This document shows positions 22,820 through 55,605 of a stretch of 64,000 nt of DNA, piece by piece. Within the stretch, counting starts at the first letter, position 1. Each line of letters begins with the position of its first letter. The stretch is from assembly GCA_964504535.1 (NCBI GenBank), contig CAZDED010000001.1:101804-165803 (forward strand), written 5' to 3'. This DNA is from an uncultured Gammaproteobacteria bacterium. Lineage in GTDB: Bacteria > Patescibacteriota > Microgenomatia > Levybacterales > GWA1-39-11. The translations under genes were made by a program, and so were the position numbers. Below the pieces are notes generated by a model, which saw nothing but the letters and a program-made list of their open reading frames with translations, made no database searches and had not been told where the DNA came from.

Positions 22820-22821
22820 TG

Positions 22822-26065: not shown

Positions 26066-26156
26066 CATGCATCATCTAATAGAAAATAGACAGAAGGCAA
26101 TAGACAGAAGTACTGGAAACAAAAAAAATAATCTAATGTCTAATGTCTTTTTTCTA

Positions 26157-29586: not shown

Positions 29587-30155
29587 TTTTTTTTAAACAA
29601 AAAATAATAGTTATTAGTCAAAAGTTATTAGTTATTAAAAAAAAACTACCAGCTACTAACTACCAGCTACTAACTTCTAAACGTGGGTTCACTCTCGTCG
29701 AACTCCTTATTTACATGGGGCTTCTAACAGTTTTGATTCTAATATTTACTGACATATTCACTTCAATAATTGATAATCAATTAAGCTCAAGAAACACATC
29801 AAATGTTGCTGATGATGGACGCTATATTTACTCACGATTCATCTATGATGTAGGGCGGGCACAAGCAATTACACAGCCTTCAACCTATGGCAGTTCTTCT
29901 GCAGTACTTGATCTTACAATCGGTGGACAAAACTATAGTTACTCTCTTCTAAATAATAATCTTGTTGTGACAAGCCCGGCAGGGGCATATGCCCTTAATG
30001 GGTATGGGTCATCAATATCGGGATTACTATTCACCAAGGTAGGGACAACAAGCGCAAAAAGCACTGTTCAGATTAATTTCACAGTAAAGGGGGTCGTGAC
30101 AAGCAGGGGAATAAAAGATCAACAGATATTCCAAACTACAGCCGGACTACGATGA
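29583..30155 (+). CDS. Prepilin-type minor pilin (PilW/GspJ-like).
   Basis: KRG|FTLVELLIYMGLLTVLILIF is a pilin N-terminus with E+5. From the only in-frame ATG the leader is unusually long (35 aa). Confidence 0.6.
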   Translation: MIFFKQKIIVISQKLLVIKKKLPATNYQLLTSKRGFTLVELLIYMGLLTVLILIFTDIFTSIIDNQLSSRNTSNVADDGRYIYSRFIYDVGRAQAITQPSTYGSSSAVLDLTIGGQNYSYSLLNNNLVVTSPAGAYALNGYGSSISGLLFTKVGTTSAKSTVQINFTVKGVVTSRGIKDQQIFQTTAGLR

Positions 30156-30535
30156 AAATATCACCTACAAATCAACAAGGACAAACACTAATTATTCTTC
30201 TCATTTATATGGTTATTGCTATTATCGTAACAACCGCTTCAATTGCCCTTGTAATCAATAGCTCTCGAGGTACAGATAAATTATACCAAGGCGCAAATTC
30301 TTTAGATATTGCAGAAAGTGGAGCCGAAACTGCTATGATTAAATTATTAAGAGATCCCAACTACATTGGCGAGACAGTGACAGTCGGAAATGGACAAGCG
30401 GTAATAACGGTAAATGGCACCAATCCTAAAATAGTAGTCTCAAAAGGAACTCTTAATAACTTTACGAGAACAATTCAAGTGATTGTTGATACAAGTAATA
30501 ATGTGTTAACAGCTACATCCTGGAAAGAAATCTGA
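30152..30535 (+). CDS. PilX/GspK-like minor pilin that lacks Glu+5.
   Basis: After QQGQ|TLIILLIYMVIAIIVTTASIAL comes ANSLDIAESGAETAM, which matches the QA..AEAG.E.A motif of PilX-type pseudopilins. Confidence 0.5.
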   Translation: MKISPTNQQGQTLIILLIYMVIAIIVTTASIALVINSSRGTDKLYQGANSLDIAESGAETAMIKLLRDPNYIGETVTVGNGQAVITVNGTNPKIVVSKGTLNNFTRTIQVIVDTSNNVLTATSWKEI

Positions 30536-30536
30536 T

Positions 30537-31229
30537 ATGGAAAATGTAAAAAAACTACCAGCAATACTATATTTAGATAAAAATGGATTTTACTTTTATG
30601 AGGAGGGGTTTCCTAGTGTTGTAAGTCTTGCGTTCCTTGCTACATCCGTAAAAGATATGGATGTAATAAATGGCGCTTCGATTATGACTCAGGTTAAGTC
30701 ATTTATTGACCAATATAAAATACCCCCAGCGATAATAAATATCATTGTTTCACCAAATATCACATTTGAGAAGGACTTTGTAGACCTTACATCAGAGGCT
30801 TTGGAGGAAAAAACAAAAAATTTTGTTGATACGATCCCTTTCGAAAGTGTCATGAGCAAAAGGTACCCAATTGATAAAGGTGTCAAGGGCATCGGATGGA
30901 ATGAAGAACTCTATTTAGAATTAAAGATGAGTTTTGAAAAAAATTCTTTTATAGTTGACCAGGTGATACCATACCAACTTCTGGGCTCTGACCAGACCCT
31001 CATCCAGAATTTTACCCAAGAAAATGCAGCACAACTACTAAGACGAATGGATCATCTTAAGCAATTTACCATGCTAACTGTTTTAAAAGAAAAACCACAA
31101 GTAACTCAAAATGCTGATGATAAAAAGTCATCAAAACCAAAACAGAGCAAAACCAGACTGTATGTCATGGGTGGAATATTTGTGATTCTTTTCATTATTC
31201 TTGGATACATGCTTCTCAATCAAAAATAG
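30537..31229 (+). CDS. Hypothetical protein with a C-terminal TM anchor inside the pilus operon.
   Basis: The 230-aa product has a single C-terminal TM (LYVMGGIFVILFIILGYMLL) and no recognisable pilin N-terminus or ATPase motif. Confidence 0.35.
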   Translation: MENVKKLPAILYLDKNGFYFYEEGFPSVVSLAFLATSVKDMDVINGASIMTQVKSFIDQYKIPPAIINIIVSPNITFEKDFVDLTSEALEEKTKNFVDTIPFESVMSKRYPIDKGVKGIGWNEELYLELKMSFEKNSFIVDQVIPYQLLGSDQTLIQNFTQENAAQLLRRMDHLKQFTMLTVLKEKPQVTQNADDKKSSKPKQSKTRLYVMGGIFVILFIILGYMLLNQK

Positions 31230-31344
31230 ATTTTGATATATTCAGGTTCAAAATACCCTACGAACAATAAATTTTCGATGTTTGCGACCAATTAAAAATT
31301 GGTGCTTGACAAGATTTTTTGGATATGATTAAGTGAATACAGAT

Positions 31345-31827
31345 ATGAAAACTGCCCAGTTGAAAAATCAAAAAGGTTTCACACTCATCGAGTTACTCGT
31401 TGTTATCGGTATACTCGCTGTTCTTCTTGCAATCACTCTTATAGCTATCAATCCAGCAAGACAATTTGCTCAAGCAAATAATACTAAAAGATCATCAGAT
31501 GTTAATGCAATATTAAATGCTGTTGGTCAATATGCTGCAGATAACCATGGATCACTTCCTGCTGGACTTACTGCTAATTGTTCTGCTGCTGCTTGCGACA
31601 TCACGGGAGTTGTCGCTGCAGGAAATATTGATTTGTGTCCAGCGCTTGTAACTTCATACCTTGCTGCTCTTCCAGTAGATCCTTTAACTAATAATGGAAC
31701 TCCAGTATCTACTTGCAATGCAACATATGTAGCAGGTTACACAATTCAAGTAAGCGCAGCTGACAATAGAGTCACCGTTACAGCTCCTGCAGCAGAACTT
31801 AGCCAAGTTATATCAGTAACCAGATAA
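31345..31827 (+). CDS. pilA: Type IV major pilin (PilA-like).
   Basis: MKTAQLKNQKG|FTLIELLVVIGILAVLLAITLIAI is a canonical type IVa prepilin with F+1 and E+5. A C-terminal Cys pair (CSAAAC...C...C) would form the disulfide loop. I chose the ATG at 31345 over the GTG at 31333. Confidence 0.8.
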   Translation: MKTAQLKNQKGFTLIELLVVIGILAVLLAITLIAINPARQFAQANNTKRSSDVNAILNAVGQYAADNHGSLPAGLTANCSAAACDITGVVAAGNIDLCPALVTSYLAALPVDPLTNNGTPVSTCNATYVAGYTIQVSAADNRVTVTAPAAELSQVISVTR

Positions 31828-31880: not shown

Positions 31881-32753
31881 TTAGAACCAGTGCTTCTTTT
31901 TTGATTCACGGTCAAACTCTTCAAGAAGTTCCTTTTGTTTTGATGAGAGTTTTGTTGGGATTTCAATTTCAACTCTTACATAATGATCTCCATGTTGCGA
32001 ACTATTTACATGCTTTACGCCTTTACCTTTTATTCTAATAAGAGTTCCTGGCTGAGTCCCTTGCGGAATCTTGAGTTTAACTTTTCCAACTACTGTCTCT
32101 ACCTCTTTGATACTCCCGACAGCAGCCTCCACCATCGTTAACTTGAGATCGGAAACGATATCGTATCCTTCTCTATGAAATTTACTATTTGAAGAAACTG
32201 AAATCACAATATCAAAATCTGAAAACTGTATTCTTGATCCATCATTGACTCCCGCAGGAACCTTTATGTCTTTCCTTGTCCCGTCTAATGAAACGGATTT
32301 TGTTGTTCCTTTAACTGCCTCCATAAAATCGATTCTGAGTGAGTACGAAGGTTTTCTTCTTCCGAAAGGTGTCCCTCCCCCCCCACCAAAAAATTGCTCA
32401 AAAATGTCGAAGGGGTCTGAAAAACCACCAAAATCCTGTGCGCCACCATTTGTTGAATATGAATAAGTAAATGGACCCTGTTGGCCGCCAAACCCTCCAA
32501 ATGGTCCCCCAGCACCCGATCCACGGCCACCATTTTCAAATGAAGCACTCCCGAATTGATCATATTGCTTTCTTTTTTGATCATTACCCAATATCTCGTA
32601 TGCTTGGTTTATTTCCTTAAATTTCTCTTCTGCTTCTTTTGACTTATTTTTGTCAGGATGATACTGCACCGCAAGTTTTCTATAAGCGCTTTTTAGCTCT
32701 GCAGCAGTTGCAGTCTTACTGACACCCAAAACTTTATAAAGATCATTACTCAT
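31881..32753 (-). CDS. dnaJ: DnaJ-family co-chaperone of type B, with a J domain and a G/F region but no zinc-finger domain.
   Basis: The J domain is [32 protein letters not shown] Gly/Phe-rich region ([21 protein letters not shown]) follows, and C-terminal beta-sandwich domains. There are no CxxCxGxG repeats. Confidence 0.8.
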
Positions 32754-32800: not shown

Positions 32801-35074
32801 TCATTGTGGGGTACATTTGAGAGGACATAATTGAATCTTCTTTCCAGACGCCACGCACGTCGGATCTGGGGTACACGTATAATATTGCTCTGGCGTCGGA
32901 GTTGGAGTACCAAGAGGTTCGAATTTACCACTTCCGCCTGGAACCGTCGTTGTTGTTGGAATGAGGGTCGGGGTTGGTGTTGGGGCAATAATAGTAGGTT
33001 GTAAAACAACTGGAGTTGGTGTTGTTTGAAGAGGATTTAGGGCAATAAATAATTTCATCGTCGTTGGTGAACCACTTGGTATAGTAAATGTTCCTTGTCC
33101 AACTATAGAACCTGATACTTTAACAACCAGAGTATACCCACCAGAAGGAACAGTATGAAAAGCGAAGTTACCGCTCGTATCCGTTGTAGCACTTGAATTC
33201 AGTGCTCCAGTTGTCGTAATTTGTGCACCCGAAAATCCTGATTCTCCTGGATCAAAAGTAGAATTACTATTCGTATCAGTATATACCGTACCTATGATTT
33301 CATTTATGATTACCCCTGGAGTAGATCCACCCGGAACTGGACTTGATGTAACAGTGGGAGTAATTGATGACGTTGGATTTGGCGAAGGGTTACCGGATGT
33401 TGCACAGGTTGCAGGTTGCAAGGTTGCTCCAGAACATGTAGGACTTTTTGAAACTCCAAGTGGTTGCTGGTCGATAAGTGTTGCTTGCATTGCTCGGTTA
33501 ACATTGTCACACTCTGTTGAGGAGGCACCATATATGTCACTACAAGCTTGTAAAAAAGAGGTGTATGCGTCTTTGAAATTTGAGGTTGCTGATAAATATT
33601 TTGTTAATGCCAAATATATAATTGGGTAACTTTTAATTCTCCCAATACCGCTCACAGAACACCCGTTAAAATTTCCCCCATCTGTCATAAGATAAAAAGT
33701 TTTATTTATTATTCCGCTATTTATGTGTACTCCACCAAAATCTGCAGCAGTACAAGCAAACGATGAAAGCTTGTCAGGCTGATCTCTTAATAATGGATTA
33801 CTCATTGATCTCAGCGGTACGGGAAGACCAGATGAAGGTGGCAAATTTTCTCCTAATTCCCAATTGTTATCCATCGCACTTCCAAAAATATCAGATACTG
33901 CCTCATTAAGAGCACCTGACTCATTTGAATATATAAGCCCAGCAGTTTCACCAGTTATAGCATGTGTCAATTCGTGACCAGTTACATCAAGAACCACAAG
34001 ACCAGTACAAAAAACCATTTCACTGCCATTCCATTGAGCATTTGGACAACTGTTTCTTGGGGCTCCTCCGGTACCAATATTTGGAGGAACTCTAACATAC
34101 CCATTATAGGAAGCACCCCTATTGTCATAACTGTCTCTATTGAAGTTGAGCTTGAAATAATCATATGCCGTATAAAAATAGTTATATAGATTATCAGACT
34201 CTGTATCTCCAGAAGCAGCTGATCCTTCAGCCCTCACCTTGGGGCATGATGTAGTACCACTACAATTAAAGATGTTTCTATTTAGTAGGTCTCTTGTTTG
34301 AGACTCCGAATAAATAAGTTTTCCATCACTAAGGCTTATGACATATTCTGTCCGAAAAATTGTTGGTTTTCCTTCTGACTTTATCATGATTCTCAATGCA
34401 ATTTGATTTTTTGGATTATCTGAAATACCAAGGAGTTGCTCATTTATATAAATTTTCTTTGCTCCCTCAACCTCAAGATTTGCAGTTTTACTTTCTCCTT
34501 TTGCTATATCTAATGCAAGTTGGATAGCTTTGGATTCCTGGATATTTTGAGAAGTGACTTCTTTTGTTGAAGAAACATTCCCGCTTATGGAATATACTTC
34601 ACTTTCATTTTTAATATGAACTGCAACGGATGACTTATAAATAGGAATGCCATTTAGAGATTGGGTAAAGAAATAATGTTCATTATTGATCACTATCCCG
34701 TTTTTCTTTAGATAACTATCATCCTTGTCTTGAGCTTGACGGGTAGGATTGGCATTTTTCGAAAAACCATCCGGGAACAATGGACCTGAATTTCCAATAG
34801 ATGGATTTTTTTGAATAAACTCTTTAGCTGCATCCAATCCTTTTTTATTCGATTTATAAAGATAAGTGTTTGTCGTGTTGATGGAAAATATTGTTCTTCC
34901 GGTATCTCTTGTTATACTTGAGTAAGGCGTTATTTCTAATGCATCAGTATTCGATTTCCCATTGAGGTATGTTATCAAAAAGCTAGCAAAAAAAACTACA
35001 ATAATAATTACTAATGCTACTAGTTTTGAATGCTTTTTGATTATTTTTTTGGGGGCTCTCAAGAACTCACTCAT
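32801..35074 (-). CDS. Membrane-anchored secreted zinc metalloprotease of family M4 (thermolysin-like), with a Pro/Thr-rich C-terminal region.
   Basis: It has an N-terminal TM (KLVALVIIIVVFFASFLITYL) and a propeptide-like region. The catalytic motif is HELTHAITGETAGLIYSNESGALNEAVSDIFG, i.e. HExxH plus the NEAxSD third zinc ligand. A C-terminal PT-rich linker ends in CTPDPTCVASGKKIQLCPLKCTPQ. Confidence 0.8.
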   Translation of the reverse strand: MSEFLRAPKKIIKKHSKLVALVIIIVVFFASFLITYLNGKSNTDALEITPYSSITRDTGRTIFSINTTNTYLYKSNKKGLDAAKEFIQKNPSIGNSGPLFPDGFSKNANPTRQAQDKDDSYLKKNGIVINNEHYFFTQSLNGIPIYKSSVAVHIKNESEVYSISGNVSSTKEVTSQNIQESKAIQLALDIAKGESKTANLEVEGAKKIYINEQLLGISDNPKNQIALRIMIKSEGKPTIFRTEYVISLSDGKLIYSESQTRDLLNRNIFNCSGTTSCPKVRAEGSAASGDTESDNLYNYFYTAYDYFKLNFNRDSYDNRGASYNGYVRVPPNIGTGGAPRNSCPNAQWNGSEMVFCTGLVVLDVTGHELTHAITGETAGLIYSNESGALNEAVSDIFGSAMDNNWELGENLPPSSGLPVPLRSMSNPLLRDQPDKLSSFACTAADFGGVHINSGIINKTFYLMTDGGNFNGCSVSGIGRIKSYPIIYLALTKYLSATSNFKDAYTSFLQACSDIYGASSTECDNVNRAMQATLIDQQPLGVSKSPTCSGATLQPATCATSGNPSPNPTSSITPTVTSSPVPGGSTPGVIINEIIGTVYTDTNSNSTFDPGESGFSGAQITTTGALNSSATTDTSGNFAFHTVPSGGYTLVVKVSGSIVGQGTFTIPSGSPTTMKLFIALNPLQTTPTPVVLQPTIIAPTPTPTLIPTTTTVPGGSGKFEPLGTPTPTPEQYYTCTPDPTCVASGKKIQLCPLKCTPQ

Positions 35075-35598
35075 TGTTTTTTAATTGACACCTGGGCAGT
35101 TGAATCGGTAGAGTTTTCCAGAGTTACTTCCAACCCATACTCAATGATTTTATCAGTACATTTCCCGGCAATACCCCCACAGGAATAACTTAAAATTTTT
35201 CTTATATCATCTTTTACTAAAGCGATGTCGGTTGTTGCAATACAGTCAAAACATTTCGAATCGGGTAATATTGCTCCTACATATTCTATAGTCACGCTCG
35301 TTGTAGGGACAGTGACGACCTTTCCTTTTATAAGGCTCATTTTAATCGGGGCAGTAGAGGAAGATATTGTGGGAACCGGGGTAATTACTGGAGCTTTCAC
35401 GCCCGGAGTAACCGTTGGAACCACATTGGAGTTATTGCTGTAGATAAAAAATGATCCAAAAATTATAACAAGCGTAATACATACTATGATCGCAATAAGA
35501 ATTATTTTTTTTGTATTTTTTTGACTTGTAGGACTGATCATAGCATTTTGATCAACAACAATGGGAGATTGTGATTGATCAAGTATATTATTTTCCAT
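35071..35598 (-). CDS. Small membrane-anchored extracytoplasmic Cys-containing protein, translationally coupled (ATGA overlap) to the M4 protease gene.
   Basis: It has a TM (KIILIAIIVCITLVIIFGSFFIY), a PT-rich linker and a ~90-aa domain with four Cys (CFDC ... SCGGIAGKC). Confidence 0.4.
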   Translation of the reverse strand: MENNILDQSQSPIVVDQNAMISPTSQKNTKKIILIAIIVCITLVIIFGSFFIYSNNSNVVPTVTPGVKAPVITPVPTISSSTAPIKMSLIKGKVVTVPTTSVTIEYVGAILPDSKCFDCIATTDIALVKDDIRKILSYSCGGIAGKCTDKIIEYGLEVTLENSTDSTAQVSIKKQ

Positions 35599-35609
35599 AC
35601 AAAACTTAT

Positions 35610-38468
35610 TTACTGGATTGCAGTTGTAGGATCTTTTTGCATCTGTGTGCCATCAGATCCTAAGGTTGGCATCGGGTTTGGAGCAGTTGACCCTCCTCCT
35701 ATTCCATCAGCATTAAATGGATTGAACGGCGGAGGTGCCATAGGGTTTTGGATAGGTGTATAAGGATCTACAATCATACTGTTTGTGGGTGTTGGAACCG
35801 GTTGCGTAACACCATTTGCTGGGGGGAAACCTGGTTGTTGTTGAATTGTTGTCCCGTCTGGCGCAACTGGATTTGCCCCAGGAACAGCTGCAGGCGTTGC
35901 ACTTTTAATAAATGTGTACTCACCCTTTGCCATATCGTAATCAATTTTTACGGTATCTCCAACGACAAACTTCTGTCCAATGATTTGAATACTTATTGGA
36001 TTCTCAATGACATTTTGAATAAGTCGTCTCAATGGTCTTGCTCCATAGACTGGGTCAAAACCTTCACCACCAAGCATCTCAAGCGCTTTATCACTAACCT
36101 CTAAATTAAACCCTTGTTCCTTTAAGAGTTTGGCAGTATGACCAATATTAATTTTTGCTATCAATTTCATGTCTTGCTTTCTTAACGGTTTGAAAATAAC
36201 TACTCCATCAAATCTGTTAACAAGCTCCGGTCTAAAGAATTTTGTCAATTCATCCATAAGCTTTTTAGATAAATCTGCAAATACCTTTTGCATATGGGGA
36301 TCTTGATTTGCAACTTTTGGAACCGCAGCAACCGCTCCATTCGCACTAACAACTGAAGCTGTAGTTGTAGCTGTAACCGGTGCTGCTGTAACTGGTTGTG
36401 GCTCTACACCAGGAATTGGAATTTCAGTTGCTCCTATAGGCGCTGTTCCTGTTAGAAGGGTAGTTGTGGATACTGCCTCTGCCTTGGCGTTTGCATCTCC
36501 TTGCTGCTTTGCATTTACTAATGCTTCTTGTATAAGTCCACTTCCAATATTTGATGTTGCAATAACGATTGTATTTTTAAAAGAAATTGTATTTCCTTTG
36601 TTGTCAGTCAGTCTTCCATCCTCAAGGAGCTGAAGAAGAATATTAAACACGTCCGGATGAGCTTTTTCAACCTCATCAAGCAGTACTATTGAATAAGGCT
36701 TTGCACGCACTGCCTCAGTTAATTGACCTCCTTCTTCGTAACCCACATATCCTGGGGGCGCACCTATGAGTTTTGCAACTTCGTGCTTTTCCATATATTC
36801 AGACATATCGAGTCTGATCATCGCATCATCTTTTCCAAATAATATTTCGGCCAAAGTTTTTGCAAGCTCTGTCTTTCCAACTCCTGTTGGTCCTAAGAAA
36901 ATAAATGACGCAATAGGCCTATTGGCGCTGGCAAGACCAATTCTTCCACGCCTAACTGCTTCGGCAACAGCTGAAACCGCCTCCTCTTGATCAATAAGTC
37001 TTTTATGGATGAGGTCCTCAAGCTGTAGCAACTTTTTGCCTTCATCCTCAGTAAGTCTTGTTATAGGAATTCCTGTCCAGTCAGAAACTACTTTCTCTAT
37101 GTCTGCTCTTGATACATTCGAATCTTGCCTTTGACCCTCAGCCTTTTTTAGCTTAACCTCAGCAGCAGCTTCGTCAAGAAGGTCAATCGCCTTGTCGGGA
37201 AGGTACCGCTCTCCAACATATTTCTTAGACAATGTAACAGAAAATTTTATAGCATCAGGAGTCAGAACAACCTCATGAAACTTTTCGTATTTTTCCTTTA
37301 ATACTTCAAGCATTTTCATTGCCGTCTCCTCATTTGGTTCATCAACGATTACAGACTGAAAACGCCTCTGAAATGCCTTGTCTTTCTCAAAATACTTTCG
37401 ATATTCGGCTGTCGTTGTGGTTCCGATCAATTGTAATTGACCGCGAGCAAGATATGGTTTTATTATGTTTGAAGCATCCATGGCTCCTCCACCTTCTTCT
37501 CCTGCCCCTATCAATGTGTGGATTTCATCAATAAAGAGAAGGATCTTCCCGCCACTGACCTGAACTTCTTTTATGACATTTTTGAGTCTTTCTTCAAATT
37601 CTCCCCGGTGAGATGCTCCGGCAATAAGGGCAGCCAAATCAAGCTGGATAATCTTTTTATCTTTCAACTGATCAGGAACTGTTCCTGCAATTATTTTTTG
37701 AGCAAGTCCTTCAATAACAGCAGTCTTACCTACCCCTGCTTCTCCAATAATGATGGGGTTATTTTTTGTGCGCCTCAACAGAATATGAACAAGTCTCTCT
37801 ATTTCCTTATCGCGACCAATCACCGGATCCAATTTCCCATCTTTTGCTTCGTTGGTAAGATCAATCCCAAATTGCTCAAGAACAGATTTTTTTCCGGCTG
37901 CCTGAAAGGTAGGATTTTTAGAAAGATTTTTTTCAAGACCCTCCTTCTGTACACCTTTGGAGGAGAGGTATTGAGATGTAGTATCAGAATTAAAAAGTGA
38001 CAAAAGGATATCTTCAGGAGTTATAAAACTAGATCCTCTATTTTTAGCCATGGTAAATGCATCATCAAATATTTTTTGAGAAACAGGGGAAAGAACGGGT
38101 GGGCCTTCAAATGTTCCTGGAGTTTGTTTTTGCTGCAGCTCACGAGCCAGATCCCCTGCATTAACAGTAAACTCTTGAAGTGTCTTATATACTTCTTTGT
38201 CATAAAGAAGCCCTAGCAAAACAATATCGGGCTCAATGAGGGCTAGTTTTGCTTTTTTTGCTTCATTTTGAGCTTGTTGAAGAACTTGATTTGCCCGTGC
38301 GTCTAAATGCGTTAGACTCTCCACATTTTGTCTTTTTACGGGATCCATGCCAGCAGGCTGTATAGGACTTTCCACAACCTGTTGTGGTTGATTAGCATTT
38401 TGAGCTACTTGATCTCCAGGCCCTTCACCTTCTCCGTATTTTTTTGTACTAAATAAATTTCCAAACAT
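35610..38468 (-). CDS. ClpB/ClpC-type Hsp100 AAA+ chaperone ATPase with two intact NBDs, an insertion in NBD2 and a long Pro-rich C-terminal tail.
   Basis: It has Clp_N repeats. NBD1 has IIIGEAGVGKTA and LLFIDEIHTLIGAG. NBD2 has FIFLGPTGVGKTE and IVLLDEVEKAHPDVFNILLQLLEDGRLTD. A ~75-aa Ala/Thr/Pro-rich insertion follows NBD2 Walker B. The C-terminal ~110 aa are P/G/Q-rich. Confidence 0.85.
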   Translation of the reverse strand: MFGNLFSTKKYGEGEGPGDQVAQNANQPQQVVESPIQPAGMDPVKRQNVESLTHLDARANQVLQQAQNEAKKAKLALIEPDIVLLGLLYDKEVYKTLQEFTVNAGDLARELQQKQTPGTFEGPPVLSPVSQKIFDDAFTMAKNRGSSFITPEDILLSLFNSDTTSQYLSSKGVQKEGLEKNLSKNPTFQAAGKKSVLEQFGIDLTNEAKDGKLDPVIGRDKEIERLVHILLRRTKNNPIIIGEAGVGKTAVIEGLAQKIIAGTVPDQLKDKKIIQLDLAALIAGASHRGEFEERLKNVIKEVQVSGGKILLFIDEIHTLIGAGEEGGGAMDASNIIKPYLARGQLQLIGTTTTAEYRKYFEKDKAFQRRFQSVIVDEPNEETAMKMLEVLKEKYEKFHEVVLTPDAIKFSVTLSKKYVGERYLPDKAIDLLDEAAAEVKLKKAEGQRQDSNVSRADIEKVVSDWTGIPITRLTEDEGKKLLQLEDLIHKRLIDQEEAVSAVAEAVRRGRIGLASANRPIASFIFLGPTGVGKTELAKTLAEILFGKDDAMIRLDMSEYMEKHEVAKLIGAPPGYVGYEEGGQLTEAVRAKPYSIVLLDEVEKAHPDVFNILLQLLEDGRLTDNKGNTISFKNTIVIATSNIGSGLIQEALVNAKQQGDANAKAEAVSTTTLLTGTAPIGATEIPIPGVEPQPVTAAPVTATTTASVVSANGAVAAVPKVANQDPHMQKVFADLSKKLMDELTKFFRPELVNRFDGVVIFKPLRKQDMKLIAKINIGHTAKLLKEQGFNLEVSDKALEMLGGEGFDPVYGARPLRRLIQNVIENPISIQIIGQKFVVGDTVKIDYDMAKGEYTFIKSATPAAVPGANPVAPDGTTIQQQPGFPPANGVTQPVPTPTNSMIVDPYTPIQNPMAPPPFNPFNADGIGGGSTAPNPMPTLGSDGTQMQKDPTTAIQ

Positions 38469-38493: not shown

Positions 38494-40617
38494 CTAAACT
38501 CCAGGAGCACCTCCAGGCTGACTTCCCGGCTCATCTTTTGGCTCGTCAGTTGGCAATTCTTGTTGCATTGCCATCTCGGCATGTCCAGCCTTACTTACAT
38601 CATCAGCTCTATCAACCATTGTGTCTTCCTCTTCTTTCTTTTGATCTACGGCTGTTAATACAGACTTGGCAGCTTCCATTTTTGCCTTAAGATATGAGAT
38701 AACTTCAGTCTTTGAGAATCCACCCAAAAGTAAGAATGGCAAGATATTTGCTACCCGCTCCATTCCCCTATCAACATTATCCTGGTTCTCAGAACTGAGA
38801 AGATTGATGGTCTCAGTTATGTTTTCTACATCTTGCTGTATAAATGAATGCTTGTCTGATGGAATTCCGTTTGGTCCGACTGGAGTTTCCATATTTTGAT
38901 AATTTTCTTGCCACATTTTCTTAACATCTTCATATTCTTCTATGCTTACCTGCTGAACCTGATTCGTTTGTGGCAACTTTACATCCTTAATATTTGCGAG
39001 TGATTCTTTTTTCTGTCCTGGTAATACTGCCTTGGTTTTGTTATTTACTTCTTCAGATACTTTAGAAGCAGATAAAACGTTGTCGGCCAATTTGTCTCCT
39101 TGTTTTTGTTGAGCAACAAGCTTTTCTTTAATTGTTGTGAATTTCTCCCTATCATGTGTGGCGGTCGCAGTGGTCGGCTTTGAGATCTTTTCGAGTGTTT
39201 CATGGAACTTGTTTACCTCGGTTCTTGAAACACTATCATGCTTCATCATTGATGTCTCATATCGCGCGATGTCTCTCATCTTAGGAACAGTAAGATTTGC
39301 AAGGCGCAATACGTCACGAGTCTCCCTTACAGATTGCAGACTACTTAGTGATGCCCGCTCCAATGTACTTGTTGTTCTTGAGGCAGGAATTTCCATCGAA
39401 CGTTTGTTGAAGAATGGAATGCTCTTAGCAAGTCCAAATGGTGAAGGTTGCTGCGGTGGCTGGCCCGGGGCAGGGGACGGTCCACCATACGCCTTATTAA
39501 ACCAGGAGTTTGAGGTAATTTTTTTAACAACCGGGCTTTCTCCAATTGACATCCCGGAAAGATAATCAAGAAATATTTGGAGCAATAAGAATGGCAAGAG
39601 AATTACCACCCAAAGCATGAGAAGAGCGACAACATACAGGGCAAAGGTATCATTAACATTTACCGAATTATCCAATCCAATTTGCTGGCCAGGCCCTCCA
39701 AGCAAGATATTTATAGCGGTCTTGTACCTGACTTGATCAGGAACATTTTTTGAAAAATCAAAAAACATCGGTATCCCACTTCTCCAAACATTCACAAGAC
39801 CGTGAAGAAATAGCGCAAACAATGGAGCGTATAGTAGCCAACGGAAAAACTCTCCTATCCAAATTTTTGCTGTATTTTTGACGGGTCGGAAAAATAAAAG
39901 GAGCGGAAATATTGGAGAAACGATAATAAAAAACCACAAGATGATTTTTCTTATGATAAGAAGTCCTGTCATGACATAGTAGGTTATTGCCGTAAGTTTT
40001 ACTAAAAGAAGAGATATAAATGCGGACTCGTCATATTCTATACCGACCTTCCTAAAACCAAGGAAATCGTATTGGAACGCAATATAGAGAAGATCTCTTG
40101 AATCAATATTTCGATTTGTTCCATCTAGGGGATCTTTTATGTTGAGGAAAAATCCTTGTAAAACATCCGTCGCTTGGTACAGAAACCTGATAATAGCAAA
40201 AGACAGTACAACAAGAACTACAATAAAGATGAAACGGGGAATAAATTTCATAATTGTCAGATTTTGACCGCGGGTTATGATCATTACAAAGGCAGATCCC
40301 AAAACAAATAGAGCCAAAAGTACAAAAACGATATTTCTAACAAGTGCCCAAAATGTTTGAATAGGATTTTCACCCGTAGAAGGCAATACAATCCATTTAT
40401 AATTTTGACTTTGAAGTGTCCAATCAAGAAAATTGTTGGCTCGGGTTGCAGTTTTACCGACAAAGGTAACTTCCTGATCTTTTACCCATCCTGTTGTGAC
40501 ATCAGGGGCTGTTGTAGGAACTGCTTGTGCATGGGTGGGACGACTAAAAGAGAAAAAGCCAACAAAAAGTATTGAAAATAAAAGGACTTTGATAAATCTG
40601 GGCAGTTTGTTATGCAT
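38494..40617 (-). CDS. Polytopic membrane protein (signal peptide, ~6 TM, then a ~380-aa hydrophilic coiled-coil/acidic C-terminal domain) with a VirB6/TrbL-like architecture. The likely start is MHNKLPRF at 40617.
   Basis: MHNKLPRFIKVLLFSILFVGFFSFSRPTHAQA is a signal peptide. Multiple long hydrophobic helices lie between residues ~120 and 400. The C-terminal half is charged, K/E/Q-rich, and ends in a DEPKDEPGSQPGGAPGV tail. Its ATG lies 1 nt after the stop of the upstream small gene. Confidence 0.5.
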   Translation of the reverse strand: MHNKLPRFIKVLLFSILFVGFFSFSRPTHAQAVPTTAPDVTTGWVKDQEVTFVGKTATRANNFLDWTLQSQNYKWIVLPSTGENPIQTFWALVRNIVFVLLALFVLGSAFVMIITRGQNLTIMKFIPRFIFIVVLVVLSFAIIRFLYQATDVLQGFFLNIKDPLDGTNRNIDSRDLLYIAFQYDFLGFRKVGIEYDESAFISLLLVKLTAITYYVMTGLLIIRKIILWFFIIVSPIFPLLLFFRPVKNTAKIWIGEFFRWLLYAPLFALFLHGLVNVWRSGIPMFFDFSKNVPDQVRYKTAINILLGGPGQQIGLDNSVNVNDTFALYVVALLMLWVVILLPFLLLQIFLDYLSGMSIGESPVVKKITSNSWFNKAYGGPSPAPGQPPQQPSPFGLAKSIPFFNKRSMEIPASRTTSTLERASLSSLQSVRETRDVLRLANLTVPKMRDIARYETSMMKHDSVSRTEVNKFHETLEKISKPTTATATHDREKFTTIKEKLVAQQKQGDKLADNVLSASKVSEEVNNKTKAVLPGQKKESLANIKDVKLPQTNQVQQVSIEEYEDVKKMWQENYQNMETPVGPNGIPSDKHSFIQQDVENITETINLLSSENQDNVDRGMERVANILPFLLLGGFSKTEVISYLKAKMEAAKSVLTAVDQKKEEEDTMVDRADDVSKAGHAEMAMQQELPTDEPKDEPGSQPGGAPGV

Positions 40618-40618
40618 A

Positions 40619-40936
40619 TCAAGAAAATCCTGGAATATGTAGAATATTCGTCGCGACAACCTGAATAAATACAAACCCAAAAATCGCAAGCAAAATCCCA
40701 ATGATGGCGTATGTTATATATGATTTACCTGTTTGAAGCTGCGCAGGATCCCCCCGAGATATAAGAATGTGGTATCCACCTATAATAAGAAAAAGTAATC
40801 CAACCAAGCCAATGAGTCCAAGCCCCCACGTATAAAATTTGCCTACAAAACCCGCAGGAGAACTAGGAAGACATCCAAAATCTGTCAGTATTTCGTTAGG
40901 CAAGCAGGTTAGAGCCATACTCATTAATACTAGCAT
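40619..40936 (-). CDS. Small (105 aa) two-helix membrane protein resembling the TrbC/VirB2-type (T4SS pilin-like) fold.
   Basis: An N-terminal hydrophobic, signal-like segment is followed by GKFYTWGLGLIGLVGLLFLIIGGYHILISRGDPAQLQTGKSYITYAIIGILLAIFGFVFIQVVATNIL. This is two hydrophobic helices flanking a short polar loop, as in VirB2/TrbC pilins. It lies 34 nt downstream of dnaK. Confidence 0.4.
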   Translation of the reverse strand: MLVLMSMALTCLPNEILTDFGCLPSSPAGFVGKFYTWGLGLIGLVGLLFLIIGGYHILISRGDPAQLQTGKSYITYAIIGILLAIFGFVFIQVVATNILHIPGFS

Positions 40937-40970: not shown

Positions 40971-42896
40971 TTAACTAACTACTTCGCCTTCTTCGGCGTC
41001 TTCTTTCTTTGAGGAACTGTCGTCGGTGTTGTCGTCCGATTTTGGCTCTTCCGAACCTGTATTTTTATGTTCTTCCGTACCCTGTCCACTGTCTCCTGTC
41101 CCTTGATTCGCATACATCTTTTCTCCGACCTTTGAGATTTTCTCTGAGAGATCCTTTGTTTTTGATTCGATCTCATCCTTGTCTTCTCCATCTTTTACCT
41201 TTTTTAACTCGGAAATTGCCTCTTCTACTTCCTTTTTGTCCGCCTCTTCAATTTTCCCTTCCATATCTTTCATTGATTTTTCTGCCGTAAAGATGAGATT
41301 ATCAGCACTATTTTTTACCTCAATAAGTTCTTTCTTTTTCGCATCCTCATCTGCATGCATTTCTGCATCCTGGGTCATCTTTTTGATTTCATCATCTGTA
41401 AGCCCAGTTGAACCTGTTATTTTGATGCTTTGCTCTTTCCCAGTTGCCTTATCTTTTGCTGTTACAGACAAGATTCCTGACGCATCGATGTCAAAAGTTA
41501 CCTCAACTTGCGGTACTCCCCGAGGTGCAGGTGGAATTCCATCCAATATAAATCGTCCGAGTGACTTGTTGTCGTTTGCCATTGGACGCTCTCCCTGAAC
41601 AACATTAATTTCGACTTGTGTTTGATTATCAGCTGCTGTTGAGAATACTTGTGATTTTTTACTTGGAATTGTTGTATTTTTCTCAATTAATGGAGTTGCA
41701 ACTCCACCCATTGTTTCGATTCCAAGCGTCAAAGGTGTAACGTCTAACAAAAGCACATCTTTCACTTCTCCACCCAGAACCCCAGCCTGTACTGCAGCAC
41801 CAACTGCAACAACTTCGTCCGGATTTACTGATTTATTTGGTTCTTTGCCAAAGAATTTTGATACTTCCTCAATTATTTTTGGCATTCTCGTCATACCTCC
41901 AACAAGAATTACCTCATCAATTCCTGATGTTTCAACCTTAGCATCTTTTAAAGCCTGCTTGACTGGTCCAAATGATTTTTCAACAAGGGGGGAAACCAAT
42001 TGCTCCAACTTTGATCGTGGGATTTTAACCGTTAAGTGAAGTGGTCCATTTGGTCCTTGAGTTATAAATGGTTGATTGATCTCAGCTTCCATTGATGAAG
42101 ATAACTCAATTTTTGCTTTCTCAGCAGACTCTTTAAGTCTTTGTAGAGCTTGAGGATCGGACCGAAGATCAATATTATTGTCCTTCTTAAATTCATCTGC
42201 TAGGTAATCGATAAGTACTTGATCAAAATCATCTCCACCAAGATGAGTGTCTCCGTTCGTTGCTTTTACCTCATATACTCCTTCTCCCAATTCGAGGACT
42301 GAAATATCAAATGTTCCTCCTCCAAGATCATAAACTGCTACTGTATGTGCATGTTTTTTGTCTAACCCATAAGCTAGTGCTGCTGCTGTTGGTTCGTTAA
42401 CGATTCGGAGTACTTCAAGTCCAGCAATTTCTCCAGCCTGTTTTGTGGCTTGTCTTTGGGCATCGTCAAAATATGCAGGAACGGTAATAACAGCTTGAGT
42501 TATTTTGTCTCCCAAATAATCCTCGGCATCCTTTTTTAGTTTTTGAAGAATTTGTGCAGAAATTTCTTGTGGAGTAAATGTTTTACCATCAACCTCAACA
42601 ACAGCCATGCCTTCGCGCCCAGACTTTACATCGTATGGCAAAAGCTTAAGGTCTTTTTGGACAGACTCGTCTTTCAATTTTCGACCCATAAGTCTTTTTA
42701 CTGAAAAGACAATCTTTTTTGGTTTTAGAACCATCTGACGCTTTGCAACATCACCAACAACTCTCTCGATTGGATCGACAACCGAAGGAGTAGTGTTTCT
42801 TCCTTCAGATGAAAAGATGACTTTTGGAGAGCCTCCCTCCATTACAGCCATACATGAATTTGTTGTTCCTAAATCTATTCCTATAATTTTTCCCAT
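40971..42896 (-). CDS. dnaK: Molecular chaperone DnaK (Hsp70).
   Basis: It begins [22 protein letters not shown] and contains [13 protein letters not shown] and [13 protein letters not shown]. It has an acidic, Gly-poor C-terminal tail. Confidence 0.95.
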
Positions 42897-42947: not shown

Positions 42948-43454
42948 TTAATTCTTAAGGTCTTCCCCGTTACCAACTTTTACCTGTGCTGGACGGATCA
43001 GTCTTCCATTTATCATAAATCCCGGTCTTACTTCTTCAATTACGGTGTCTTTGGCTCCAGGTACCACTTCTATCACTTCCATTGAGTCTGCATTATATTT
43101 TACATTCTCACACTGTATCTTATCAATACCATTTTGTTGTAAGACTTCAAGTATTCTTCCGATTGTCAATTTTACACTCTCATCTGTTGTATATTTTCCT
43201 GCCAAAAAGAGTGTATCAAATGCAGGCAAAAGTGCTTCTATTAATTGCTTGTTTGCAAATTTGACTGCCTCACTTCTTTCATCAAAACTTCTTCTTTCTA
43301 AGTTTCTATAGTCTGCTACTGCCCGTTTTAGTTGCTCATCAAGTTCTTGTATCTTTACATCCCGTTCGTCTACCTCTTCGGTAATCTCCTCAATAATTTC
43401 TTCTTCGTCCTTTTTATCTTGTTTTATCTTATTATTATCCATCGCACTAATCAC
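42948..43454 (-). CDS. grpE: Nucleotide exchange factor GrpE.
   Basis: It has an acidic N-terminus and a coiled-coil (DYRNLERRSFDERSEAVKFANKQLIEALLPAFDTL). The C-terminal beta domain reads EVVPGAKDTVIEEVRPGFMINGRLIRPAQVKV. Confidence 0.9.
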   Translation of the reverse strand: MISAMDNNKIKQDKKDEEEIIEEITEEVDERDVKIQELDEQLKRAVADYRNLERRSFDERSEAVKFANKQLIEALLPAFDTLFLAGKYTTDESVKLTIGRILEVLQQNGIDKIQCENVKYNADSMEVIEVVPGAKDTVIEEVRPGFMINGRLIRPAQVKVGNGEDLKN

Positions 43455-43480: not shown

Positions 43481-44203
43481 TTACCATCCTGCAACTTCTT
43501 CTATTAAAGAGCCGTAGTATCTTACTAGTGGTACGATATTTTCGTATCGAAGTCTTGCAGGCCCGATAACTCCAATAGTACCATCATGATTTCCTCGCGT
43601 GTGGAATTTAGAAAACACAAAACTGTATGGTTTGAATAGTTCTAATTCCAAATCTTCTCCCAAAATTACTGAAAATTTCTCATGAATATTTCCAAAAATC
43701 GTATCAAAATAAGTTGAATTATCTAATAAATTTAATAAATTCTTCGTGACATCGATGTCATAAAATTCTGGCATATCCAAAATGTGAGAGTATCCAGAAC
43801 AGTAAAAGTCACCCATGTCATTTCTCGCAACCGCCAATGTTCCTGTTTTATCAGCTAGTCTCTGAGTTGCTGTACGCATGAATTCTCCTTCTTTTTCCCG
43901 TACATCCCAAACCTTTTCTTTTGCTTCAACCTCCTCAGCAACTGAAAGATCCTTCTCTTTCATTAATTCATTGACGTACAGTTTCATCGCTTTTGAAGTC
44001 GGAATACGGCCAGCCGATGTATGAGGTTTTGCAAGATATCCCTTTTTGACCATTACGGCCATCTCGTTCCTTATCGTAGCGGGGCTCACACCTACATCAT
44101 ACTTTTTCTCCAATGTTTCGGAGCCGACTGGGTTTGCCGTATCGATATATTCTTTAACTATCTGCTTTAATATCTCGATTTGTCTCTGTGTTAAATCGTA
44201 CAT
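43481..44203 (-). CDS. hrcA: Heat-inducible transcription repressor HrcA (short form).
   Basis: It has an N-terminal winged helix (LTQRQIEILKQIVKEYIDTANPVGSETLEKKYDVGVSPATIRNEMAVMVKKGYL), and a CIRCE operator lies immediately upstream. Confidence 0.85.
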   Translation of the reverse strand: MYDLTQRQIEILKQIVKEYIDTANPVGSETLEKKYDVGVSPATIRNEMAVMVKKGYLAKPHTSAGRIPTSKAMKLYVNELMKEKDLSVAEEVEAKEKVWDVREKEGEFMRTATQRLADKTGTLAVARNDMGDFYCSGYSHILDMPEFYDIDVTKNLLNLLDNSTYFDTIFGNIHEKFSVILGEDLELELFKPYSFVFSKFHTRGNHDGTIGVIGPARLRYENIVPLVRYYGSLIEEVAGW

Positions 44204-44268: not shown

Positions 44269-44295
44269 TTAGCAATACTATATCACGAGTGCTAA
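44269..44295. promoter_or_regulatory. CIRCE operator (HrcA binding site): TTAGCAATA-N9-GAGTGCTAA.
   Basis: The half-sites are at 44269-44277 (7 of 9 matches to TTAGCACTC) and 44287-44295 (a perfect GAGTGCTAA), separated by a 9-nt spacer. It lies 66 nt upstream of the hrcA ATG. Confidence 0.8.
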
Positions 44296-44305
44296 ATTAT
44301 GTCAA
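44277..44305 (-). promoter_or_regulatory. Sigma-A-type promoter for the hrcA operon that overlaps CIRCE (TTGACA-17-TATAGT).
   Basis: On the minus strand the -35 TTGACA is at 44305-44300 and the -10 TATAGT at 44282-44277, with a 17-nt spacer. CIRCE occupies the spacer and the -10, which is the classic arrangement. Confidence 0.5.
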
Positions 44306-46180: not shown

Positions 46181-46618
46181 TTACTTTTTTGATTTTGCAG
46201 AAATTTTGATTTTTCGGGGCTCTTTCTTTTCTGCCTTTTTGAAGACTAACTTTAATACCCCATTTTCAAGTTCTGCGACCGGTTCTTGATCGGCAACTAT
46301 TCCTTCAGGAATTCTAAATGAGTAGTTAAATGTATTTGCCATCGAAGTCATGAAGTATCTTCTCTTAGTAGACTCTTCGTCATGCTGTTCAGCTGATCCA
46401 CTAATTCTGACTACTCCATTCTCAAATGTTATATCTATTTTTTCTTCAGGAATTCCAGGAACATGAGCTTCGGCTACCAAAGAGTCCTCAGTCTCATAAA
46501 GATTTAATCCTTGTGACATGAATTTTGATACACCAGGAAACGTAGGGAACTCAAAATCATCATCCAAAATTCTGTCTAGATTCCATGGATTTAATCGCAT
46601 TAATGACATATTGTTCAC
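46181..46618 (-). CDS. Small heat-shock protein (Hsp20/alpha-crystallin family).
   Basis: The alpha-crystallin domain reads EDSLVAEAHVPGIPEEKIDITFENGVVRISG...FRIPEGIVADQEPVAELENGVLKLVFKK. Confidence 0.9.
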   Translation of the reverse strand: MNNMSLMRLNPWNLDRILDDDFEFPTFPGVSKFMSQGLNLYETEDSLVAEAHVPGIPEEKIDITFENGVVRISGSAEQHDEESTKRRYFMTSMANTFNYSFRIPEGIVADQEPVAELENGVLKLVFKKAEKKEPRKIKISAKSKK

Positions 46619-49717: not shown

Positions 49718-50085
49718 TAAAATGTTAGAAATAATATCTGCAAATAAGCAAGCAATCCAAGTAATAAAATCAGAAAACAATTAAACAAAACAATCCTTGA
49801 GATAAGAACATATTTAGTATAAACAAAAGTCGCCAATAAAACATTCCCAACAAATATAGCAACAAGTAGCATAGGCAAGATAATTGTAATATTGGAACCA
49901 ATCAGTCTTTGTTCACCCCAAGGCATGCTATTAAAAAATGGGATCAGCGGAGGAAGACTTCCATATGTGACAATTATTATGGTTATGAGAGGAACAATAA
50001 AAAGAATAGACAACAATAACGATATCCTTACAAATTGGTCACTCAATACTGTACTAAATTTCTCTTTCATAAATTTTGGTTCCAT
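49717..50085 (-). CDS. Small 3-TM membrane protein of unknown function.
   Basis: It has hydrophobic helices only. It is wedged between two glycan-pathway genes with overlapping ends. Confidence 0.3.
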   Translation of the reverse strand: MEPKFMKEKFSTVLSDQFVRISLLLSILFIVPLITIIIVTYGSLPPLIPFFNSMPWGEQRLIGSNITIILPMLLVAIFVGNVLLATFVYTKYVLISRIVLFNCFLILLLGLLAYLQILFLTF

Positions 50086-51520
50086 CCATGATATACCTCA
50101 ATTGATACGATGATAGTATGTTGTCGACAACAGGTACATCCATTGTTTGTATTATATATTTTGGTTGTTCTTTATCAATCTGCTGTTTCGTTATTGTGTC
50201 TGCATTTTTATAGAATGTGATGTGATAAGCAACCACATATTTTCCAATAGGAAGCCTGTTGGAGAGTGCATATATCTGTGCGCTGTCAGACCAGAGAAAA
50301 ACTCTTTCATTGCTTTTTATATTCATACGGATAAAATTTGCTATGTCATAATCCCGAGGGGTATTCCGGTCAAAAAATGCCTCGTACTCAACGATGTGCT
50401 CTTTGTTCATTATAAATTTTAAATAATTACTGTAATAAGGAATAGAACGGAGATAGATCTGAAAATGGAAATACGCAAAATAACAAATGACTACAATTGC
50501 AACCACGTTAACTATGCGTAATTTTACTTTCTCAAATAATTGTCCTATCAAAAGAGAAAAAACCGGAAGAATTACAAGTGAATAATGTATATAAGGTCTT
50601 TCCGAAAAGAATGCGTTATACAAAGAAAATATCAACCAGAGATAAATAAACAAAGAAGTCTTTGATATCCTCGTTCGATTCACGAAGATTATCATCAAAC
50701 CAACGGATAATAAAATGGTTTTAATAACGAGTATCCCCATCGGGAATATAAATCTATTTTGCTCTCCTACGTACGAAACATTCTGCAGAAATACAGCGCC
50801 GATAAATTCCTTTGGGATTCCCAAAAATAAGAAAAATACAAAACATATCACAAGAAGTAAAATGGTTGATAGAAAAAAATCTAAGAAACGCCTAACGTTT
50901 TGATTTGAAATCACAACTCTACTTGAAAATAAAATGAATGTCATAAATGCTGCAAAGTCAAAAACGGCAACTATCTTTGTGATGACAGCAATTGACAAAA
51001 GCAACCCTGCATAAATAAGTTTTTTCCTTTGTTTGTTTTCGAGATAAGAATAAATCAAATAAGCTGCGCTTATAATAGGAAGTAACATAAAATTCTCCGC
51101 GTTGGCTATATTTCCTTCCAAGATAGGTAGACCAAAAAGTATCGAAAATACCGTTGTCGAAATGTAAAATGACAGAGGATTTTCAAACATTTTTTTTGAC
51201 AACAGAAAAAAGATTACCGTTGAAAATAAACCGGCAAATAAAGATAAAAGTTTTATCAAATAAAGATTCCCATTTACTAATGCGTAAATAATGTAAAGAA
51301 GTGGCGGCTTATTATCCCAAATATCTTTATATAATGTCTTTCCTGAAAGCAAAGCTCTTCCAATCACTTGATATATTCCCTCATCGCCGTACCAATGAGG
51401 CTCTATAAGAGAGGGGATTCTAAGAACTACAAAAACAGTGCAAATAACGAGTAAAAACCAGGCATCGCGATACTGGTAGAAAGATTTTGACTTATAAATT
51501 CTCAAAAAAAAACTTTTCAT
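50054..51520 (-). CDS. GT-C fold membrane glycosyltransferase (family 39/83, ArnT/PMT-like).
   Basis: There are about 11 TM helices and an N-terminal loop (PHWYGDEGIYQVIGRALLSGKTLYKDIWDNKPPLLY) matching the PMT_2 / ArnT N-terminal motif. Confidence 0.65.
   Translation of the reverse strand: MKSFFLRIYKSKSFYQYRDAWFLLVICTVFVVLRIPSLIEPHWYGDEGIYQVIGRALLSGKTLYKDIWDNKPPLLYIIYALVNGNLYLIKLLSLFAGLFSTVIFFLLSKKMFENPLSFYISTTVFSILFGLPILEGNIANAENFMLLPIISAAYLIYSYLENKQRKKLIYAGLLLSIAVITKIVAVFDFAAFMTFILFSSRVVISNQNVRRFLDFFLSTILLLVICFVFFLFLGIPKEFIGAVFLQNVSYVGEQNRFIFPMGILVIKTILLSVGLMIIFVNRTRISKTSLFIYLWLIFSLYNAFFSERPYIHYSLVILPVFSLLIGQLFEKVKLRIVNVVAIVVICYFAYFHFQIYLRSIPYYSNYLKFIMNKEHIVEYEAFFDRNTPRDYDIANFIRMNIKSNERVFLWSDSAQIYALSNRLPIGKYVVAYHITFYKNADTITKQQIDKEQPKYIIQTMDVPVVDNILSSYQLRYIMDGTKIYEREI

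Positions 51521-53919: not shown

Positions 53920-55605
<1,686 letters not shown>

Follow-up and report, generated by a model that had tools for sequence, protein, structure and literature searches.

Type IV secretion systems (T4SS) with VirB2-like pilins have already been described in Patescibacteria, in the Saccharimonadia by Wang et al. 2023 (PMC10633639) and phylum-wide by Quinonero-Coronel et al. 2025 (PMC12102498), and in Southlakia the T4SS genes together with a pilin array are essential for epibiotic growth (PMC10633639; PMC12857230). The 3,035-genome survey found VirB4 in 80% of Patescibacteria, encoded near dnaA in Microgenomatia, and described the apparatus as MPF-FATA-derived with widespread VirB2-like pilins; VirB3 was mostly unlinked to virB4 in Microgenomatia, and VirB6 was 'scarce' there, 'suggesting extreme sequence divergence' (PMC12102498). 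Here we analyze a pair of adjacent genes in a 64,000-nucleotide stretch of contig CAZDED010000001.1 (hereafter the window) that lie between dnaK and a clpB-like gene and encode a leaderless VirB2-like pilin and a divergent, extended VirB6-like membrane protein. The named homologues of these proteins belong to Candidatus Levybacteria / Levyibacteriota, class Microgenomatia, within the Candidate Phyla Radiation (CPR)/Patescibacteria.

On balance we consider it likely that the pair makes up the membrane part of a type IV secretion or conjugative-pilus apparatus of the Patescibacteria type. It is best read as a dispersed variant of the known Patescibacteria T4SS, set apart from any virB4 cluster and fixed in the Levybacteria chromosome. 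It shares with those systems a monoderm-type organization, PF18895 pilins that are sometimes arranged in arrays, a VirB6-type protein, a chromosomal location, the lack of a relaxase and the dispersal of genes seen in Microgenomatia. In contrast to them, the pair resides in an hrcA-grpE-dnaK...clpB heat-shock operon rather than in a virB4 cluster near dnaA, its VirB6 escapes direct detection by hidden Markov models and carries a repeatable C-terminal module of ~340 residues, its pilin is leaderless, and many Levybacteria assemblies have no detected VirB4. The kind of system, a T4SS with VirB2-like pilins, is already known, and the pair does not represent a novel type of apparatus. New findings are the identification of the highly divergent VirB6 of Levybacteria and of the leaderless pilin encoded with it, the conserved location of both genes in a putatively HrcA-controlled dnaK-clpB operon, and their occurrence in assemblies scored as VirB4-negative.

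The VirB2-like pilin

The pilin gene (40619 to 40936, minus strand; TGA stop at 40621-40619) encodes 105 residues as annotated here. Its true start is possibly Met5 (40924) or Met7 (40918), and in a second contig that carries an identical large protein the pilin was called from Met5, giving 101 residues. The product scores 27.5 bits against PF18895 T4SS_pilin, above the gathering score of 26.6 (E 3.2e-6), and the same family is matched by 28 of 30 pilin orthologues from related loci (E <= 0.01). The classical family PF04956 TrbC/VirB2 was not matched by the window pilin and was matched by a single one of the 30 orthologues at E 0.003, and an hhalign comparison of the pilin with TrwL revealed no similarity. 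The VirB2-like pilin reading originally proposed for the small protein is upheld through its PF18895 match. There is also a weak match (27.7 bits, E 1.6e-6) to NF045849, the NCBIfam family of Mbov_0395 pilin-like conjugal transfer proteins. Like the Mbov_0395 pilin of the Mycoplasma integrative conjugative element (ICE), the window protein is a small pilin-like protein with two transmembrane (TM) helices from a wall-less or monoderm type of T4SS; unlike it, its score falls under the family cutoff of 40 and its gene is not in an ICE.

By hydropathy there are two hydrophobic segments, 33-62 and 71-103, with the loop SRGDPAQLQTGKS between them, and the AlphaFold model is a helical hairpin with helices at 27-59 and 64-98 and a predicted local distance difference test score (pLDDT) of ~90. 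The two analyses agree with the earlier description of two hydrophobic helices around a short polar loop, and the two TM helices joined by a short basic loop that are expected of PF18895 pilins are predicted. In the family alignment the conserved elements are a cysteine pair, C-x9-13-C (C11 and C22 in the window), followed by (I/L)PxDPxGFV, the first TM helix, the loop S(R/Q)G(D/N)P..L..GKSY, the second TM helix and a C-terminal end IPGF(S/N/K).

The 'signal-like N-terminus' attributed to the small protein was not borne out. It comprises only about 10 residues (MLVLMSMALT), most orthologues are leaderless proteins of 93-105 residues that start 0-8 residues ahead of the first cysteine, and a true leader was found in only 7 of 77 orthologues. 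The cleavable signal peptide typical of PF18895 pilins is therefore lacking in the window pilin and in most of its orthologues. Related loci also encode leader-bearing paralogues whose mature N terminus is predicted at the same position as the leaderless start, and the leaderless proteins thus match the pilin in its mature form. A lipoprotein N terminus was considered and discarded, as there is no lipobox (ALTC) and the orthologues begin MxC. Likewise, IPGFS is not a PGF-CTERM sorting signal, as the motif stands at the extreme end after a TM helix and not before one. As pure speculation, the near-invariant end (K/H/R)IPGF(S/N/K) (40619-40650, minus strand) and the leaderless start could be a determinant of processing or cyclisation as in TrbC/VirB2.

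The VirB6-like protein

The second gene of the pair (38494 to 40617, minus strand) encodes a polytopic membrane protein of 707 residues. The window protein itself does not match PF04610 TrbL/VirB6 (E <= 1). Of 30 family members, 18 match PF04610 (E <= 0.01) and none matches any other family; four homologues that are 45-61% identical reach 26.0-29.4 bits, above the cutoff of 25.9. An hhalign comparison of the family profile with TrwI aligned residues 185-287 to TrwI 120-234 at E 0.005, and this is the same region that the PF04610 matches cover. The protein has a TM core of VirB6 fold at residues 85-355 (39553 to 40365, minus strand), which is very strongly conserved in the family alignment and contains its most conserved motif, RKIILWFF...RNTAKIWxGEFFRW. 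The core is followed by a proline-rich basic linker and then by a conserved helical C-terminal module at residues ~420-685 (38563 to 39360, minus strand). The C-terminal region of ~350 residues is charged (K+R 46, D+E 51) and helical.

The original prediction that the large protein bears a signal peptide was confirmed by the alignment, in which Ala30 (...HAQA) is invariant. The number of TM helices, given there as about six, is less straightforward. Hydropathy alone does suggest six segments, which would place the C terminus outside, whereas the AlphaFold model shows five long helices at 85-115, 121-158, 193-241, 244-281 and 324-355. Over the alignment the N-terminal domain and the loop at 150-197 are acidic, and the loop at 114-124, the segment at 244-259 and the linker after the TM core are basic. 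These charge statistics favour a topology with the N terminus out, five TM helices and the C terminus in, which is the topology known for A. tumefaciens VirB6, and the C-terminal module is probably cytoplasmic. The attributes of a polytopic VirB6, namely five or more TM helices, the N terminus outside, a large loop after the second TM helix and the C terminus inside, are all present as predicted features.

The likeness to TrwI and TrwL of R388 (PDB 7O3V; MPF-T) consists of weak profile similarity over the central TM3-TM4 and of the arrangement of a VirB6 platform that recruits VirB2. As differences, sequence identity is 11%, the Levybacteria protein additionally carries a signal peptide and, at its C terminus, a large module, and the system belongs to a monoderm host with no VirB7, VirB9 or VirB10 and with no adjacent VirB3, VirB4 or VirB5. 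In having a polytopic N-terminal domain and a large hydrophilic extension, the protein resembles the extended VirB6 proteins, such as RvhB6 of Rickettsiales, the Anaplasma paralogues and TraG of the F plasmid, as well as TcpH of pCW3 (the Rickettsiales proteins were compared by description only). Sequence similarity to TcpH and to PrgH of pCF10 is undetectable, and neither Pfam nor the PDB offers a match to the C-terminal module. Of the VirB6/TrbL/TcpH-type resemblance that had been proposed, the VirB6/TrbL part is upheld and the TcpH part is limited to architecture.

Among 1.84 billion cluster representatives, the family comprises 623 clusters at 50% identity with E <= 1e-3 and 326 with E <= 1e-30; it is small and lineage-specific. 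In many homologues (P0199-P0334) the whole C-terminal module of ~340 residues is tandemly repeated in up to about eight copies behind one TM domain, giving proteins of up to 3,266 residues.

Conservation of the locus

In the window the pair lies in a co-directional run on the minus strand, hrcA-grpE-dnaK-pilin-VirB6-like-clpB-like-175-residue membrane protein-M4 peptidase-dnaJ. The coordinates bear out the earlier account of a small and a large open reading frame (ORF) between dnaK and a Clp gene, with a single base between the TGA of the pilin and the ATG (40617) of the 707-residue frame. We scanned one genome per GTDB species and found 153 genomes with a full-length relative of the VirB6-like protein, and the best 80 loci of these were analyzed. 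In 77 loci the VirB6-like gene is immediately preceded by a pilin ORF; the others are cut off at a contig end. At most 12 nt separate the two genes in 64 of these 77 loci, and the distance is exactly 1 nt in 16; it was counted up to the first possible start codon past the stop of the pilin and is hence a lower bound. Of the 66 loci that could be evaluated, 62 have dnaK (40971 to 42896 in the window, minus strand) upstream of the pair, and the other four have full 10-kb upstream flanks without dnaK. The conservation of the pair and its co-occurrence with dnaK across related genomes, which had been put forward as a check of the prediction, are both substantial.

The linkage to the ClpB-like gene is stricter still. 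The Clp ATPase noted after the pair is a ClpB-like AAA+ protein of 952 residues (35610 to 38468, minus strand) whose gene starts 25 nt 3' of the VirB6-like gene, and its adjacency is conserved in relatives: all 66 evaluable loci have a ClpB-like gene on the strand of the pair and no more than 6.5 kb away, with two arrangements seen, and every locus that lacks clpB is truncated on the side concerned. Where dnaK is missing, three of the four loci have clpB upstream of an array of 3-4 pilins that precedes the VirB6-like gene. The ClpB-like protein of the window is atypical. Its best match is to the ClpB model, but at 888 bits the score stays far below the equivalog cutoff of 1232 bits; only ~65 residues lie between the lid of the first nucleotide-binding domain (NBD1) and NBD2, so the middle domain is short; and NBD2 contains a long low-complexity insert rich in Ala, Thr and Pro and is followed by a proline-rich tail.

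The VirB6-like gene is single-copy per genome in the 80 loci, and the GC content of the pair is the same as that of its flanks. Among the carriers of the pair are the closed or near-closed genomes OY970292.1, CAYRKM010000001.1 (835 kb), CAYVKP010000001.1, JACOXU010000001.1 and CAYVFE010000001.1. The ratios of nonsynonymous to synonymous substitution (dN/dS) against the closest relative were 0.032 for the pilin, 0.021 for the VirB6-like gene, 0.033 for dnaK and 0.030 for clpB. Purifying selection on this chromosomal pair is thus strong and comparable to that on dnaK.

Two variants of the locus were seen in relatives. The array type is exemplified by locus L052 (6734-13937; likewise L056, L057, L061 and L064), in which clpB and a pilin are followed by a protein of ~500 residues encoded on the opposite strand, three further PF18895 pilins, two of which have signal peptides, and then the VirB6-like gene, with no dnaK within 10 kb. 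Next after the VirB6-like gene comes a protein with a coiled coil and a SpoIID domain that may be a VirB1-like cell-wall enzyme. The opposite-strand ORF has no Pfam match and is not VirB4. In several close relatives (L006, 7029-9626; also L008, L009, L012 and L014) an insertion of ~2.7 kb separates dnaK from the pilin; it contains ORFs of 159 and 701 residues, neither of which is VirB4, and the longer has no Pfam match. Many of the third party annotation (TPA) metagenome-assembled genomes (MAGs) that carry this Levybacteria-specific locus (L004-L083) are labelled 'uncultured Gammaproteobacteria bacterium', which is evidently a placeholder or an error.

Putative heat-shock regulation

The first gene of the run is hrcA (43481 to 44203, minus strand), which encodes the heat-shock repressor and was identified by tblastn synteny and by PF01628 in an identical ENA metagenome contig of 64,544 bp, nearly all of which the window covers; it is followed by grpE (42948 to 43454, minus strand; PF01025) and dnaK. 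Just upstream of hrcA there is a putative operon promoter, TTGACA-17-TATAGT with a TG extension, overlapped by an HrcA operator resembling CIRCE (controlling inverted repeat of chaperone expression), which together span 44269 to 44305 on the minus strand. This is the best sigma-70-like promoter of the window. The CIRCE-like element (44269-44295; TTAGCACTC-N9-...TTGCTAA) has 2 mismatches and is the single match in the window, for a chance expectation of 0.04. Of 58 orthologous loci, 45 likewise have a CIRCE-like element ahead of hrcA.

The end of dnaK lies 34 nt 5' of the pilin gene, the gap between the VirB6-like gene and the clpB-like gene is 25 nt, and no intergenic terminator-like site was found between dnaK, the pair and clpB. 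With a CIRCE-like element at the promoter, short gaps and no terminators between the genes, the simplest reading of the sequence is that the pair would be co-transcribed under HrcA control. Further proteostasis genes are found nearby. A gene for HSP20 (46181-46609, minus strand) lies two genes upstream of hrcA, and groEL (53920-55557, minus strand) is ~10 kb away and has no CIRCE-like element with up to 3 mismatches ahead of it.

Missing T4SS components

The observation that no VirB4 or VirD4 ATPase is nearby was confirmed in the window and is conserved across ~80 loci. Pfam scans of the large ORFs in the 64-kb window found neither protein. A phmmer search of 2,776 ORFs from the window and the related loci, with TcpF, PrgJ and TrwK as VirB4 queries, TcpA, PcfC and TrwB as coupling-protein queries and PrgI and TrwM as VirB3 queries, found no VirB4, coupling protein or VirB3, and returned only an ordinary FtsK in one locus. 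The other Walker-A ORFs in this set are ABC transporters, IF-2 and FtsK. A VirB6 gene is expected beside other T4SS genes, especially virB4; here only the VirB2-like gene adjoins. A search with an L052 array pilin for a virB4 locus via its paralogues returned only orthologues of that pilin. One VirB4-positive Levybacteria genome (GCA_000990055.1) has a cluster of its own in which two VirB2 genes are followed by three unannotated genes, TrsD and VirB4, and in which no VirB6 was called. Among pair-carrying genomes, RIFCSPHIGHO2_02_FULL_40_18 (L038) is VirB4-positive by the published table (PMC12102498).

Discussion

Our results suggest that the missing VirB6 of Microgenomatia may be present in Levybacteria in a form that direct searches overlook, and the pair probably supplies it. 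The R388 structure reportedly shows a VirB6 pentamer that forms the base of the stalk and provides the site at which VirB2 subunits are recruited. By analogy, the pilin would insert in the membrane as a helical hairpin with both termini outside and the basic loop inside, and the VirB6-like protein, which would run from an external N terminus through five TM helices to a C-terminal module that is probably cytoplasmic, may oligomerise in the membrane as a platform that lifts pilin subunits into a surface filament or stalk with which a host cell is contacted. Translational coupling could set the supply of pilin relative to the platform, and placement in the HrcA regulon would cause production of the pair to rise with that of the chaperones. 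Our working view of the motor is that it would be a VirB4 encoded elsewhere, used where the genome has one.

Several observations count against this interpretation. The large protein of the window has no match of its own in Pfam (E <= 1), NCBIfam or the PDB sequences. Foldseek against the PDB was not significant, with TrwI at rank 7 (E 0.56), and hhalign of the family profile with TcpH and PrgH gave a probability of 0.2, although these were single-sequence templates of low sensitivity; a search of PDB sequences with the family profile likewise gave chance matches only (E >= 0.2). No VirB4, VirD4 or VirB3 is encoded within 10 kb of ~80 orthologous loci. Table S1 of the phylum-wide survey lists 44 Levybacteria assemblies, of which 20 are scored positive for VirB4 and 24 negative (PMC12102498), and the mean assembly sizes that we computed from that table, 0.92 Mb for the positive and 0.85 Mb for the negative assemblies, are similar. 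Of the four named pair-carrying genomes in the table, one is VirB4-positive and three are negative. In the VirB4-positive genome described above, virB4 is accompanied by pilins of its own, so the pair next to dnaK could form a module apart from it. Finally, we infer both the co-transcription of the pair and the formation of a filament.

The VirB4 counts also speak for an alternate explanation, that a T4SS-derived pilin and VirB6 platform were captured by a proteostasis operon and work independently of VirB4, with the ClpB-like unfoldase and/or DnaK servicing or energizing the module by extracting pilin or unfolding cargo, loosely as ClpV does for the type VI secretion system. This is supported by the observations that ~55% of Levybacteria assemblies and three of the four pair-carrying named genomes are VirB4-negative at similar assembly sizes (PMC12102498), and that a clpB-like gene adjoins the pair in all 66 evaluable loci, including the four without dnaK linkage, three of which have clpB on the other side of a pilin array. 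The atypical Clp protein, with its 888 bits against a cutoff of 1232 and its short middle region, and the probably cytoplasmic C-terminal module of the VirB6-like protein would also suit such a role. However, heat-shock genes cluster for regulatory reasons anyway, and the Clp protein looks like the main ClpB-type disaggregase of the cell, the other Clp-like gene of the window having a degenerate first ATPase domain. The 'absence' of VirB4 was moreover scored in draft MAGs, with an overlap of only four genomes. A further concern is that we know of no T4SS-type pilus that assembles without VirB4. We therefore regard VirB4-independent capture as rather unlikely, and the same modest chance is given to its corollary, that a heat-shock-expressed VirB2-pilin/VirB6 module without VirB4, tied to ClpB with or without DnaK, would constitute a chaperone-powered or chaperone-serviced filament or conduit of T4SS origin.

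The embedding of the pair in an HrcA/CIRCE operon would also fit a stress-membrane complex unrelated to T4SS, in which look-alikes of VirB2 and VirB6 act with the chaperones in membrane-protein quality control or envelope maintenance, and the lack of a direct Pfam match for the large protein and of a significant Foldseek result can be cited in its favor. We nevertheless find this improbable, because PF18895 is matched by 28 of 30 pilins, because two adjacent genes of T4SS type are expected of homologues and not of chance look-alikes, and because related loci have 3-4 typical PF18895 pilins bearing signal peptides ahead of the VirB6-like gene. T4SS families are also typical of mobile elements, and with the rest of the apparatus missing locally the pair could in principle be a fragment of an ICE or a decaying T4SS remnant. 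A position shared by ~80 species-level genomes between housekeeping flanks, the lack of a relaxase, integrase, VirB4 or VirD4, a GC content like that of the flanks, dN/dS of 0.02-0.03 and single-copy occurrence make this very improbable, and we rejected a mobile-element origin on the grounds of synteny, the missing integrase, relaxase and ATPase genes, and purifying selection.

If the pair is the membrane module of a Patescibacteria-type T4SS, as we favor, its interest lies in the fact that the T4SS is essential in the sole genetically tractable patescibacterium and that this locus offers a candidate for the VirB6 hardly found in Microgenomatia. In Levybacteria the genes for the pilin and its platform belong to the chromosomal core, form part of the HrcA heat-shock operon and show strict linkage to a gene for a ClpB-like ATPase. 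This opens two questions to testing, namely whether a host-contact apparatus of ultra-small bacteria is regulated by stress and whether VirB2 and VirB6 can function without VirB4. Should VirB4 be found in all complete genomes, the finding would shrink to a useful annotation and a note on synteny.

Other features of the window

Downstream of the clpB-like gene, the co-directional run continues with a gene for a single-TM membrane protein of 175 residues (35071 to 35598, minus strand) and one for an M4 (thermolysin-like) peptidase of 757 residues (32801 to 35074, minus strand), and it ends with dnaJ (31881 to 32753, minus strand). The 175-residue gene overlaps the start of the peptidase gene by 4 nt (ATGA), and the peptidase is membrane-anchored with a Pro/Thr-rich, CarboxypepD_reg-like C terminus. 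These two genes follow clpB in many related loci, and in others an S8 subtilase is found instead.

A second Clp/Hsp100 gene (20471-22957, minus strand) encodes 828 residues and has a weak or degenerate first ATPase domain. A type IV pilus set with pilB (T2SSE), pilC (T2SSF) and several N_methyl pseudopilins occupies 23304-31827 on the plus strand, a few kb from the T4SS-type pair; it also includes a protein of 993 residues without a family match, and pilO lies separately at 62181-62804 (plus strand). Two adjacent genes for proteins of ~490 residues (50054-51520 and 51526-53025, both minus strand) had no match in current Pfam and NCBIfam scans, and for one of them the identical contig carries a precomputed match to PF27757 (Competence-induced Ccs4 N-terminal).

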